This document shows, piece after piece, positions 10,637 through 12,311 of a stretch of 64,000 nt of DNA; position 1 is the first letter of the stretch; each line of letters starts with the position of its first letter. The DNA is from a virus: the IMG/VR virus record IMGVR_UViG_3300010399_000005, positions 1-64,000 of that record; one strand, given 5' to 3'. A program made the translations under genes and the position numbers. A model generated the notes under the pieces. That model was not told the origin of the DNA. It ran no database searches and saw only the letters and a list, made by a program, of their open reading frames with translations.

Positions 10637-11125
10637 ATGGGTGGGACAAAGCCCGGACGACGTCATCGACGAACGATGAAGAACTTTTATGCGGCGTACG
10701 GATATGCCCCATGGGAGTGTCGATACTGTGGTGATCTCGTTATACAAATAGGTCGTGGTACGTGGGATGGAAACGTTCATCATCTTGATGAAGATGTCAC
10801 GAATGATGAACCTGAGAATCTCACGATAGCTCATGCCATCTGTCATCAGCGACAACATTCACCTGATGAAGAAATGAAGCGACGTATCAGTGAGAAACTA
10901 AAGGGTCGTCCTTCACCCACGAAAGGAATGAAGTTCTCACCTGAATCAAATGTACGTAAGAGTCAACCGGGTGAGCTAAATCCATTTCATGGAAAAAGAC
11001 ACACTGATGAAGCACTCATCAAGATGAGTCAGCCACGTAAGCGTATCTTGTGTAATGACTGTGGTCGTGATTGGGCAGTGAACTGGATCGAACGACACAA
11101 GCGCGAGGGTCAATGCGTTTCGTAG
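10637..11125 (+). CDS. HNH homing endonuclease with NUMOD3-like repeats
   Basis: CRYCG, VHHLDED..NDEPENL...HAICH; NPFHGKRHTDEA; lower GC. Confidence 0.85.
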   Translation: MGGTKPGRRHRRTMKNFYAAYGYAPWECRYCGDLVIQIGRGTWDGNVHHLDEDVTNDEPENLTIAHAICHQRQHSPDEEMKRRISEKLKGRPSPTKGMKFSPESNVRKSQPGELNPFHGKRHTDEALIKMSQPRKRILCNDCGRDWAVNWIERHKREGQCVS

Positions 11126-12311
11126 ATTGTCAGGGCTTCGCTGGTGGGTTCACGCTTGGGACAGTGCAAGCGGGTTTCGAGCTCGCAGGTAAATGTGAAC
11201 AACGTGGAGCGTTTGGTGCTCCTAATTGTCTCGCTAATCGTCATCTTCTTGGTGAGAACTGGGAAGTACAAGAAGGCGATCCTTCTACTTGGGAGCATCC
11301 CGGAGGGGAGGTGGTTCTAGTCACGGGTAACCCCCCGTGCTCTTAGCTGGGTTCTCACTGATGTCCAATCGCAACTTCCGTGGGGTGAACTCACCGGCGA
11401 ACGCGTGCATGTGGGCGTTCGTCGACTACGTGTCACGGGTGCGGCCGTACGTGGCGGTGTTCGAGTCGGTCCAGCAGGCGTTCACGACCGGCCGTGAGCT
11501 CATGACCGCACTCATACATCATCTTCGCAACCGGACCGGCCTCGACTATCACCTGTATCACGTGAAGCACAACAACATTGCACTAGGTGGGTTCGCCGAA
11601 CGTCGTCGCTACTTCTGGGTCGCAGCACGTGTTCCCTTTGGCGTCGAGCTGCCGGAACTGCGGCGCCTGCCAACGCTCTGGGACGCCATCGGGGACATCG
11701 AGTCGTCCCCGGTCACCTGGGAACGTCAGCCGTACCGTTCCCTACCTAGCCCCTGGTCCGAGCGGCTTAGAGCAGAGCACGGCTTCGATGGGCACGTCAC
11801 GCGTACCACTCCTGAGTTTCACCGCGCGATGGCGCTCCTACCGGTAGCAGGACCCTGGAACCCAGGCGAGAACATCTCGATGGTCGCCCAGCGCTATCAT
11901 CAGCTCACCGGTACGCTTCCTCCTACGTGGGAGTACCGTCGTGAGAAACTGCTCAACAACGGCTTTCACATGGGTTTCCACCAGCTCATCCGCTGGAAGC
12001 CTGAGAAGCCTGCACGTGTCATCACCGGTGGGGCTCTTCAACTTGTGTTACATCCCACACACGATCGCACACTCACTCACCGTGAAGCTGCTCGCATCAT
12101 GGGCTTTCCCGATGACTGGGTCATAAAACCACTACGAAGCTACTCCCAACTTCAATCCACGTGGGGTAAGGGCATTCCCGTGGGAAGTGGACGCTGGATC
12201 GCGACATGGGCAAAGCGCTCAATCCTAGGTGAGCCTGGTGAGCGTGTGGGGACTCCCATCGCGGATCACGAGAGTCTCATTGATGTGACGAAGGTGCAAC
12301 CTTGCTCATAG
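11113..12311 (+). CDS. C5 cytosine DNA methyltransferase, interrupted by a 5-nt TAGCT insert at 11344-11348
   Basis: Motif I-like GFAGGF and motif IV GNPPCS in frame 11113-11346. GFS, FESV, ERRRYFW, LTHREAARIMGFPD and WGKGIP follow in the +2 frame. Removing 5 nt restores PPCSGFS. Confidence 0.85.

Follow-up and report, generated by a model that had tools for sequence, protein, structure and literature searches.

A frame-breaking insert beside an HNH gene in a soil phage C5 methylase gene: a candidate homing cassette with a proposed short ribosomal hop

We analysed a 64,000-nt stretch of DNA from a soil phage (the window), in which a C5 methylase gene is interrupted in motif IV, one codon after its catalytic Cys, by a 5-nt insert and is preceded by an HNH endonuclease gene. 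Our favoured explanation, which we consider probable though well short of certain, is that the HNH gene, the 5' part of the methylase gene and the insert make up a homing cassette, and that the break is decoded by a short ribosomal hop. At the sequence level, support comes from the insert, its link to the HNH gene, the mosaic structure of the methylase gene, purifying selection on the methylase N part and the common anatomy of the inserts found at this spot.

Under this explanation, a mobile homing cassette, consisting of an HNH-NUMOD3 gene, a spare C5 methylase 5' part and a tiny out-of-frame insert in motif IV, would end on its right at the break. In phages competing with the carrier, the HNH endonuclease would cut methylase alleles that lack the insert, within or close to the conserved DNA of motif IV, and repair would then copy in everything from the HNH gene up to and including the insert. 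With its HNH target spoiled by the insert, the carrier would not cut itself. The methylase would still be made: when the P site holds Ser-tRNA on UCU and the A site holds UAG, the peptidyl-tRNA would release, move 5 nt forward, helped by a hairpin refolding just behind it, and re-pair with GCU, with decoding resuming at GGG to give ...NPPCS-GFS.... The features of the locus are listed below.

9909..10634, + strand: MazG-like nucleotide pyrophosphohydrolase gene; start uncertain; Pfam dUTPase_2, 26.2 bits (cut-off 22.9)
10637..11125, + strand: free-standing HNH-NUMOD3 endonuclease gene, 162 aa, between MazG and methylase
11113..11343, + strand: methylase N part, 77 codons, from motif I (GFAGGF) to motif IV (GNPPCS)
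11302..11314, + strand: Shine-Dalgarno-like purine run GGAGGGGAGGTGG, 27-39 nt 5' of the take-off codon
11319..11341, + strand: predicted hairpin on the 5' side of the take-off codon, which it touches
11341..11343, + strand: proposed take-off codon TCT (Ser)
11344..11348, + strand: insert TAGCT, 5 nt, with in-frame stop TAG at 11344-11346
11346..11348, + strand: proposed landing codon GCT, equal to the take-off codon at positions 2-3 only
11349..12311, + strand: methylase C part, resuming at GGG 11349 with GFSLMS..., motifs VI-X, stop at 12309-12311

The methylase locus and its break

The MazG-like gene has a conserved place to the left of the methylase, being directly 5' of it in annotated phages and in most related loci, and in the window it forms the left flank of the cassette. 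The HNH gene sits between the two; it is absent from 59 of the 66 types compared, including the closest intact relatives (L044 and L045). As described in an earlier sequence-only reading of this DNA, its reading frame overlaps the methylase start (ATG 11113), by 13 nt. The catalytic motifs of the methylase are divided between its two parts, GFAGGF and PPC in the N part, FESV and RRRYFW in the C part, and these are motifs I, IV (PC), VI and VIII of C5 methylases. The C part matches Pfam DNA_methylase (PF00145) with 48.2 bits (cut-off 22) and is 75% identical to an intact homologue (L044/P0002). A megablast of the region against phage records gave no match, and a search of bacterial genome contigs with the methylase alignment gave distant matches only (best 67% over 24 residues, the rest at most 47%); this methylase family was not found in bacterial genomes by that search.

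The break itself is where the earlier reading had placed it, one codon 3' of the catalytic Cys (TGC 11338-11340, TCT 11341-11343, then TAG 11344-11346). Instead of a single uninterrupted methylase frame there is a stop at 11344, and coding after the insert (GFSLMSNRNFRG...) runs in the +2 frame from GGG 11349. Because PPCS-G/A-F/W-S is ungapped in five annotated phage homologues and in the nearest metagenome homologues, the window has exactly 5 extra bases, which can also be written CTTAG or TTAGC since CT stands on both flanks. The insert is absent from all intact homologues. When the gap is skipped, NPPCS joins GFSLMS and the sequence of the intact homologues is restored, with no residue gained or lost. 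The database stores the two methylase pieces as separate proteins.

The HNH protein scores 31.5 bits with Pfam NUMOD3 (cut-off 20.4) and 20.0 bits with Pfam HNH, just under the cut-off of 21.4, and it matches the HNH and homing-endonuclease families of PHROG. Of its 30 homologues, 29 are 48-66% identical to it and one, left out of the alignment (A2), is 33% identical. All 27 invariant columns of this alignment, including Cys, His and Asn, are filled in the window's protein. We read the invariant Cys and His as probable zinc-binding and catalytic residues, and judged by its sequence the gene looks intact. The protein had no match in phage records or in a PDB sequence search, and as a single query against viral contigs it gave one weak match only.

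Association with the HNH gene and mosaic structure

Motif IV is frame-broken, by inserts of 5-16 nt, in 6 of 7 methylase types adjacent to an HNH gene versus 2 of 59 types without one (Fisher p = 2e-6), an association partly built in by sampling because the metagenome loci were retrieved with HNH as query. The check called for by the earlier reading, namely whether homologous methylases carry the insert only beside the HNH gene, thus came out in its favour: inserts go with HNH. Among 80 loci retrieved with the methylase instead, HNH accompanies only 1 of 3 broken alleles, and 1 of 2 HNH carriers is intact. The broken HNH-adjacent types are the window, L024 (=L035=L049), L026, L027-L030, L031 and L034, and the sole intact one is L072, whose Ser codon is AGT; the two broken types without HNH are L048 and L082. 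Two loci (L001 and L117) had no N or C match and were skipped in the lesion comparison. Among 21 non-self clusters of N-fragment proteins, the last residues are exactly ...NPPCS in 14 and another 5 break off at PPC or PPCS, these (P0152-P0170) being known from their protein ends only; the other two stop before the break, P0171 at a contig end and P0172 with no contig on record.

The codon style of the HNH gene continues into the methylase 5' part, as the earlier reading had noticed. The frequency of T at third positions is 0.36 in the HNH gene, 0.40 in the N part and 0.12 3' of the insert, and GC3 is 0.38, 0.42 and, in the first 77 codons 3' of the insert, 0.82, the C part having the codon style of the resident gene. 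The difference between the GC3 of the N part and that of the C part averages -0.25 in 10 broken rows versus -0.02 in 58 intact rows (p = 1.5e-6). Identical rows were collapsed in these row comparisons and in the fold tests given below, which also left out L028-L030 as near-copies of L027.

Broken L034 and intact L075 share 97.4% of amino acids and 90.5% of nucleotides in their C parts versus 66.7% and 62.5% in their N parts, and broken L082 and L084 share 97.2% and 91.3% versus 70.8% and 64.8%. Trees of the two parts were built from 53 rows (L044-L091, L123, five broken loci and, as outgroup, four of the distant L092-L122), leaving out duplicates and C parts under 225 aa. The N parts of the broken alleles cluster in their tree, whereas their C parts are scattered. 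The broken state needs 8 changes on the C-part tree, where the starred branches force at least 6, versus 5 on the N-part tree, a number as low as this being reached in none of 500 shuffles. Co-conversion of a flanking host gene is indicated by lower identity in N than in C parts, by conflicting trees and by a GC3 that switches at the insert. These marks support a foreign origin of the methylase 5' part, with the HNH gene, the 5' part and the insert apparently acting as one mobile unit, so the cassette logic that the earlier reading had borrowed from mobA/gene 60 of T4 is sustained.

The N part carried by the cassette is apparently under purifying selection. L034 and L082 are both broken; between their N parts dN is 0.087 and dS 1.29 (omega = 0.07), and between their C parts omega is 0.05. 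Over all 28 pairs of broken N parts dN is 0.09-0.50, with dS saturated in 22; L027-L030 differ by 0-2 codons, giving no power for dN/dS inside one insert type. Each break could be recent, and the purifying selection seen between lineages may therefore largely predate it.

Insert anatomy and proposed decoding of the break

Eight types of insert are found at this spot. Three are of 5 nt, namely TCT/TAGCT/GGG in the window, TCT/TGACT/GGC and TCT/TTACC/GGC; two are of 7 nt, TCT/TGACTCC/GGG and TCT/TGACTCT/GCG; and the remaining junctions are TCT/TGAGATAACATAATCC/GGG, TCT/TGAATATGTGTAATCC/GCA and CCG/TAAGACCG/TGC. An in-frame stop opens 7 of the 8 and UUA (TTA) opens the eighth; the window accordingly has a stop directly after its take-off codon, the position at which a programmed hop is expected to have a stop or slow-to-decode codon. 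In 5 of the 8 types the last codon of the insert is read by the take-off tRNA (TCY after TCT, or CCG after CCG). The other three, all of 5 nt and including the window, have landing and take-off codons that agree at positions 2-3, and these types (L048 with ACT, L031 with ACC and the window with GCT) all land on N-C-Y. For UCU and GCU this is the partial agreement that the earlier reading had described. The two 16-nt inserts differ at 5 of 10 inner bases and keep TGA, TAATCC, their length and their ends. In L026 and L082 a TAA in the new frame stands immediately 5' of the landing codon, so neither a +1 shift at take-off nor initiation reaches the GFS/AWS codons. Taken together, this anatomy, with the stop first and a landing codon matching the take-off codon, appears to favour hopping over an enzyme made in two pieces.

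The flanking repeats (CT..CT, CCG..CCG, TCT..TCT) could also be duplications from DNA repair and not selected landing codons. Further, in the window and likewise in the two other 5-nt types, the landing codon pairs with the Ser anticodon at only two of three positions.

The hairpin predicted 5' of the gap has as its core CACGGG (11322-11327) paired with CCCGUG (11334-11339) around the loop UAACCC in the minimum-energy fold. A 5' hairpin of this kind is predicted for every one of the 8 broken types, and intact alleles fold more weakly there. Over the final 36 nt, the mean minimum free energy is -13.3 kcal/mol for the 8 broken types versus -6.8 for 58 intact rows (p = 4e-5), and the pairing probability of the Pro-Pro-Cys codons is 0.82 versus 0.49 (p = 7e-5). 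The stems of the broken types differ in sequence and register. The earlier reading had proposed a different pairing around the site, AACCC (11329-11333) with GGGTT (11349-11353); both strings are present, but the minimum-energy fold pairs CACGGG with CCCGUG instead. We rejected that stem, which lies outside the minimum-energy fold and is possible in only 3 of the 8 broken types, with junctions read by eye.

The purine run GGAGGGGAGGTGG ends 27 nt 5' of the take-off codon, as had been noted. Of 10 broken rows, 9 have GAGGT in the 60 nt preceding the take-off codon, versus 2 of 58 intact rows, and the Ser codon is TCT in 9 of 10 versus 13 of 58; the cassette N parts being related by descent, TCT, hairpin and SD-like run do not amount to eight independent observations. 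The SD-like run lies 27-46 nt upstream of the take-off codon, which by anti-SD geometry is too far for pairing with the anti-SD of a ribosome standing on that codon. The run may nevertheless have a role in decoding. As a ribosome-binding site for the C fragment it was rejected, the C frame being closed or startless up to GFS in the window, L026, L082 and L024. A phage-encoded suppressor or odd Ser tRNA was likewise rejected: the window holds no tRNA and the rest of the genome only tRNA-Gly(ACC).

Two other explanations deserve weight, and we regard both as unlikely, to about the same degree. In the first, the gene codes for a two-piece enzyme, in which an active methylase is assembled from a 77-aa N fragment and a second fragment whose translation restarts nearby, at GTG 11337 or the conserved ATG 11361. 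The stop and the possible restart codons lie at most about 20 nt apart, a stop right after PPCS yields the clean N fragment at which most N-fragment clusters end (14 of 21), purifying selection on both parts fits equally well, and Topo2L and NrdA are split yet active after MobA/MobE insertion (Manning and Atkins, Discussion, 10.1101/2022.08.31.505936). The two pieces, however, do not each have a start with its own ribosome-binding site, there being no SD before GTG 11337 or ATG 11361, and no added tails are seen at the split, which would fall within the catalytic loop. The closed C frame of L026 and L082 makes their first start an ATG four codons past GFS/AWS; yet the four codons before this ATG are consensus-like in all 8 types and, between L034 and L082, carry 2 synonymous changes and no replacement. 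A two-piece enzyme also leaves the match of landing and take-off codons unexplained.

The second explanation, to which we would give little credence, is that the gene is dead: the insert would be a repair scar or a target-spoiling mutation on a selfish cassette, and a dispensable methylase would be inactive in its carriers. Recent invasion is frequent for homing elements (Manning and Atkins, Discussion, 10.1101/2022.08.31.505936), two of the broken alleles have no HNH, the landing codon of the window is a poor match, and the direct repeats flanking the inserts resemble repair products. Against this, none of the 8 types, at about 75 + 320 codons each, has a second lesion. The cassette N parts keep motifs I and IV despite saturated dS (dN 0.09-0.50), although homing should need no coding. 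Inserts that begin with a stop and end on a codon for the same tRNA are not expected of a dead gene, nor are two 16-nt inserts whose interiors have diverged with length and ends kept.

A -1 frameshift at UCU, which we consider very unlikely, would read CUC out of C UCU UAG and then UUA GCU GGG, giving PPCS-LA-GFS with two extra loop residues. No stop interrupts the -1 frame from 11331 onwards, an A-site stop favours shifting, and the C frame can be reached by a +1 or -1 shift in 6 of the 8 types. But there is no slippery heptamer, the shift is impossible in the two 16-nt types due to a stop in the new frame, and the loop that would gain 2-3 residues is the most conserved one and has no extra residue in any of the 58 intact alleles; the same argument is applied to a terminase in PMC10732093.

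A second assembler's contig (Logan, 81,548 nt, run X1) contains the insert and shows no difference over 10900-11800 at a word depth of about 50; the run is probably the source sample, so this contig gives no independent support, and the sequencing runs listed comprise one DNA run, probably this source, and no RNA run. A sequencing or assembly error is nonetheless so improbable as to be negligible, even for a metagenome assembly whose only run found is probably its own source, because the two contigs are identical at that depth, the insert lies outside any homopolymer and seven other insert types occur at the same spot in other samples.

A second 5-nt insert of this form occurs in the same genome, in a glycosyltransferase gene (site at 18707-18658, - strand), where TGC GGA/TAGGA/CAT gives GGA-UA-GGA, a perfect match; the related phage L171 lacks this insert. 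Extending the hop proposed for the methylase, we suggest tentatively, and as somewhat less probable than the opposite, that short stop-hops are a general device of soil actinophage-like phages, with two sites here, and that a near-cognate landing at two of three positions may be enough for a +5 hop. Such a portable module would have a hairpin on its 5' side, then a stop or a rare codon, a gap of 5-16 nt and a landing codon that is cognate or near-cognate. With it, selfish nucleases and perhaps the phage itself could break the frame in the most conserved codons of an enzyme without losing the enzyme. Since the glycosyltransferase site has no adjacent nuclease, hopping may also set expression levels.

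Relation to known homing and bypass systems

In T4, mobA/gene 60 combines an HNH homing endonuclease with a 50-nt translational bypass (Manning and Atkins, 10.1101/2022.08.31.505936). The methylase cassette has in common with it, as described in that source, that an HNH gene moves jointly with a non-coding insert and a replaced segment of the host gene, that the insert falls in a highly conserved coding region with a stop or rare codon after take-off, and that there are a take-off/landing match (partial in the window), a stem-loop 5' of the gap (predicted here) and an SD-like element; some carriers in both systems have kept the insert and lost the endonuclease. It differs in that the host gene is a C5 methylase and not a topoisomerase, and that the gap is 5-16 nt and not 50. 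By sequence search the HNH protein is unrelated to MobA, having no match in phage records. It lies upstream of the whole gene and not inside it as in T4, so there is no split with added tails. Unlike T4 gene 60, no nascent-peptide signal is known for the methylase gap. The split nrdA of Aeromonas phage Aeh1 likewise shows a homing endonuclease, MobE, breaking an enzyme gene that still functions, but there the result is two separate proteins with added tails (Manning and Atkins, in the part cited), whereas no tails or start signals were seen at the methylase break. For phage ShiLan (PMC11855218) an HNH insertion described as out-of-frame is likewise a homing element linked to an actinophage DNA methylase gene; it sits within that gene, with in-frame read-through, in contrast to the separate upstream HNH and 5-nt break found here.

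Short gaps also occur in the large terminase genes of Streptomyces phage phiHau3 and two prophages; they are of 10 nt and 7 nt and are led by UUA; a 5' stem loop and an internal SD have been proposed for them, and the junction peptide was detected by mass spectrometry in E. coli (PMC10732093). Shared with the methylase are the actinophage setting, the frame-breaking gaps (7-10 nt there) absent from relatives, the landing codon, the proposed 5' stem loop and the internal SD. No homing endonuclease is described in the passages cited from that paper, and the purpose proposed there is regulation by tRNA-Leu(UAA), whereas the methylase gaps begin with a true stop in 7 of 8 types.

Like the synthetic stop-hops of E. 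coli, the proposed event would have a P-site tRNA re-pair a few bases downstream, past a stop. Weiss et al. in 1987 reportedly obtained such '+5 and +6' hops at a low level in artificial constructs. Those were thus artificial, and differ in this from a conserved natural device. We found no device of this kind in print among open PMC papers and bioRxiv. Few natural genes are proven to be decoded by bypassing; the natural cases described in the papers cited are T4 gene 60 with its homologues, the yeast mitochondrial 'byps' and a candidate in Streptomyces phage terminases.

If true, the methylase cassette would make a compact system for testing how homing endonucleases protect their carriers, as well as a natural series of take-off/landing pairs, gap lengths and hairpins for dissecting hopping, and gene callers would be reporting such methylases wrongly as broken. 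It would be a second, unrelated combination of endonuclease and bypass, with many diverged members, and the solution found by mobA/gene 60 would have evolved more than once.

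Locus and insert

The IMG/VR record behind the window is 81,641 bp long and carries direct terminal repeats, the window being its first 64 kb. The break lies in the following setting.

Up to 10634: MazG-like gene, left neighbour of the HNH gene
10637-11125: HNH-NUMOD3 endonuclease gene
From ATG 11113: C5 methylase gene; its N part, 5' of the insert, reads MRFVDCQGFAGG...GNPPCS and is followed by TAG 11344-11346
11349 to 12311: methylase C part, 3' of the insert, GFSLMSNRNFRG..., in the +2 frame

The C part scores 48.2 bits against Pfam DNA_methylase (cut-off 22). The motif PPCS-G/A-F/W-S is unbroken in five annotated actinophage homologues and has no gap in the nearest metagenome homologues (P0002-P0008, 390-405 aa, 61-75% identical), and therefore the insert in the window is exactly five bases, TAGCT, one codon past the catalytic Cys. 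The sequence-only reading had reported a stop and extra bases just after this Cys, and this is borne out, the five bases being missing from the homologues. A Logan contig from sequencing run X1 shows no differences over 10900-11800 at a depth of about 50, which excludes an assembler slip; X1 is probably the source sample of the record and hence provides no independent confirmation of the insert. The MazG-like protein ends in a Cys-rich C-terminal tail (10400-10634) with a weak, below-cut-off match to Zn_ribbon_8, and such a tail is likewise present in loci L048 and L072.

Association with the HNH gene and mosaic structure

Thirty HNH homologues were obtained, and their Cys/His/Asn columns are invariant; identity is 48-66% for 29 of them and 33% for the last. 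An alignment leaving out the 33% homologue served as query against viral and metagenome contigs. Wherever the HNH gene so found lies directly 5' of a methylase and the junction is on the contig, the frame is broken inside motif IV (L024, equal to L035 and L049; L026; the near-identical L027-L030; L031; L034); the contigs of L032 and L033 stop short of the junction. A scan of viral contigs with a methylase alignment gave 80 loci, three of them broken (L049, L048 and L082), the last two without HNH. After deduplication, the 68 rows comprise 8 broken with HNH (6 methylase types), 2 broken without, 1 intact with and 57 intact without. That motif IV inserts would track an adjacent HNH gene was a proposed check, and it came out positive: 6/7 types with HNH are broken vs 2/59 without (Fisher p = 2e-6), with the caveat that the metagenome loci were selected by HNH similarity. 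Among methylase-selected loci alone the link is weak, with HNH in 1/3 broken alleles.

The intact locus with HNH, L072 (1770-3481), carries a 45% identical HNH directly 5' of a methylase with motif IV TGC AGT GCG TGG AGT, i.e., with AGT as Ser codon; recoding Ser codons synonymously may be an alternative escape from the nuclease. L048 (2268-3469, 5-nt insert) and L082 (544-1789, 16-nt insert) have a cassette-type N part of low GC3 and no upstream HNH, and it looks as if they lost the nuclease and retained the insert. In L085 (1028-2267) a MazG gene flanked by two different HNH-type ORFs, one with SPETRAKI-like repeats, lies 5' of an intact methylase, and the match to the HNH is only partial (38% identity). 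The stretch between MazG and the methylase looks like a hot spot of nuclease-gene insertion.

The codon style of the HNH had been described as continuing into the methylase 5' part, and the GC3 values agree: 0.38 in the HNH and 0.42 in the N part vs 0.82 in the 77 codons past the insert. A step at the insert occurs in 10/10 broken rows, including the two without HNH, with GC3(N) minus GC3(C) of -0.11 to -0.40 (mean -0.25) vs -0.02 in the 58 intact rows (p = 1.5e-6). Protein identity between broken L034 and intact L075 falls from 97.4% in the C part to 66.7% in the N part, and between L082 and L084 from 97.2% to 70.8%. The C-part tree requires 8 changes of broken state, starred branches forcing at least six. 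The N-part tree, poorly resolved with its 75 columns, requires 5 (0/500 shuffles as low) and joins L034 and L082 as sisters (SH-aLRT 99), away from L075 and L084. The GC3 step, the identity drop and the tree conflict therefore place a recombination boundary at the insert, and the putative mobile unit is the HNH gene plus the N part and the insert. Compared with L044, both parts of the window methylase are about equally close (76% aa each); the mosaic of the window is visible in composition, not in identity. The N part of P0008 (402 aa, intact) is, by eye, much nearer to that of the window than its C part (61%) is, and P0008 may be a donor-like allele or one that shed the insert precisely.

Decoding of the broken gene

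Inserts of the eight broken types (take-off codon / insert / next codon)
Window: TCT / TAGCT / GGG, 5 nt
L048: TCT / TGACT / GGC, 5 nt
L031: TCT / TTACC / GGC, 5 nt
L027-L030: TCT / TGACTCC / GGG, 7 nt
L034: TCT / TGACTCT / GCG, 7 nt
L026: TCT / TGAGATAACATAATCC / GGG, 16 nt
L082: TCT / TGAATATGTGTAATCC / GCA, 16 nt
L024: CCG / TAAGACCG / TGC, 8 nt

An old-frame stop opens 7/8 insert types, and TTA, a rare codon in high-GC actinobacteria, opens the remaining one. This rarity is also discussed in an excerpt of PMC10732093. The landing codon, the last triplet of the insert, is readable by the take-off tRNA in 5/8 types (TCC/TCT after TCT, CCG after CCG); all three 5-nt inserts finish C-Y, giving GCT, ACT and ACC, and that of the window matches its take-off codon at only 2/3 positions. 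Both 16-nt inserts share their ends (TGA...TAATCC), differ in 5/10 inner bases (counted by eye) and have a new-frame TAA immediately 5' of the landing codon. Such patterns are very unlikely by simple chance models, with the caveat that the eight types group into about four insert families and so are only partly independent of one another. TCT is the Ser codon 5' of the insert in 9/10 broken rows vs 13/58 intact rows.

Apart from the insert, both parts are free of stops and frameshifts in 8/8 types. Between the broken L034 and L082, omega is 0.07 in the N part (dN = 0.087, dS = 1.29) and 0.05 in the C part; over all 28 broken N-part pairs dN is 0.09-0.50, with dS saturated in 22. Motifs I and IV are retained in 19 further N-fragment clusters of the protein collection, 14/19 ending exactly at NPPCS and 5/19 showing other breaks at PPC or PPCS; the other two of the 21 clusters end before the break (P0171 because its contig runs out; P0172 has no recorded contig). 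The proteins P0156, P0161, P0168, P0160 and P0169 end in PPC-H..., PPCS-LPGFR or PPCSG-RVASHL and are probably additional junction types.

A hop (translational bypass) over the insert that yields methylase is our leading reading and a reasonably probable one. It ranks first because one hop rule restores the consensus protein in 8/8 types, while shifts add residues or fail in the 16-nt types and restarts lack an SD. A two-piece enzyme, with the C fragment restarted separately, appears unlikely: the restart would need an ATG four codons past GFS/AWS, or GTG 11337 in the window, none with an SD, and the four codons then left untranslated remain consensus-like in 8/8 types, with synonymous differences only between L034 and L082. 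We consider it equally doubtful that the methylase gene is dead in carriers. Homing would rely on homologous sequence flanking the HNH on its left and the cut on its right, and would not need the N part to code. Conservation of the cassette-borne N part at the protein level thus speaks for its translation into a useful product; the breaks may nevertheless be recent, or the N parts renewed by exchange with intact alleles. A -1 shift at the take-off codon is quite improbable, since a +1/-1 shift would lengthen the most conserved loop by 2-3 residues (extra residues in 0/58 intact alleles) and is impossible for both 16-nt types.

Returning to the hop, a hairpin is predicted in 8/8 types, with the Pro-Pro-Cys codons as 3' arm; it either reaches the take-off codon or stops shortly 5' of it. 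The window pairs CACGGG 11322-11327 with CCCGUG 11334-11339, and the stems vary in sequence and register between types. Over the last 36 nt, the mean minimum free energy is -13.3 kcal/mol for the broken alleles vs -6.8 for the 58 intact ones (p = 4e-5), and PPC-codon pairing probability is 0.82 vs 0.49 (p = 7e-5), the lowest broken value being reached by 7/58 intact alleles; segment GC is not higher in broken alleles (0.59 vs 0.61). An SD-like run resembling GGGAGGTGAT lies 27-46 nt upstream in 9/10 broken vs 2/58 intact rows (GGAGGGGAGGTGG, 11302-11314, in the window). At take-off the 3' arm would be kept open within the ribosome, and refolding would then draw the mRNA forward a few bases, much like the "5' stem loop motor" described for gene 60 in a review. 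Hairpin and SD-like run may be no more than a legacy of the cassette N part, and we treat them as leads rather than proof.

A second insert and related systems

A similar insert occurs in a glycosyltransferase gene of the same genome.

18658-18707, - strand: insert site, ATG 18707 ... TGC GGA / TAGGA / CAT
18668-18666, - strand: take-off codon GGA
18665-18663, - strand: TAG
18663-18661, - strand: landing codon GGA

The protein reads MKTCVFPADAWGCG, stop, then HYRLIW... in the +2 frame, vs an unbroken ...WGCGYYRLIW... in the related phage L171 (80,678 bp). [quoted passage not shown] No nuclease gene was seen adjoining this site. The ORF-finder start, GTG 18678, drops the first 14 codons. As a candidate hop site, it shows that the +5 geometry in this phage is not confined to the methylase. 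The sole tRNA found in the phage genome, at L172 8224-8301 (genome 72224-72301, + strand), is a tRNA-Gly whose anticodon, ACC, is unusual for bacteria; the 64-kb window contains no tRNA.

Among open PMC papers and bioRxiv, no publication was found that deals with methylase genes carrying hop inserts or with the HNH family of the window. The methylase insert is a putative hop site, somewhat more probable than not, and in the window its landing codon matches at only two of three positions. The nearest known system is T4 mobA/gene 60; as described by Manning & Atkins (bioRxiv 10.1101/2022.08.31.505936), MobA, its "homR" stretch and the gene 60 insert have the same arrangement. Among actinophages the nearest precedent is the short bypass led by UUA in the terminase of phiHau3 (PMC10732093), where the junction peptide was detected in E. 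coli and where, for the 10-nt gaps, a 5' stem loop and a flanking internal SD are proposed.
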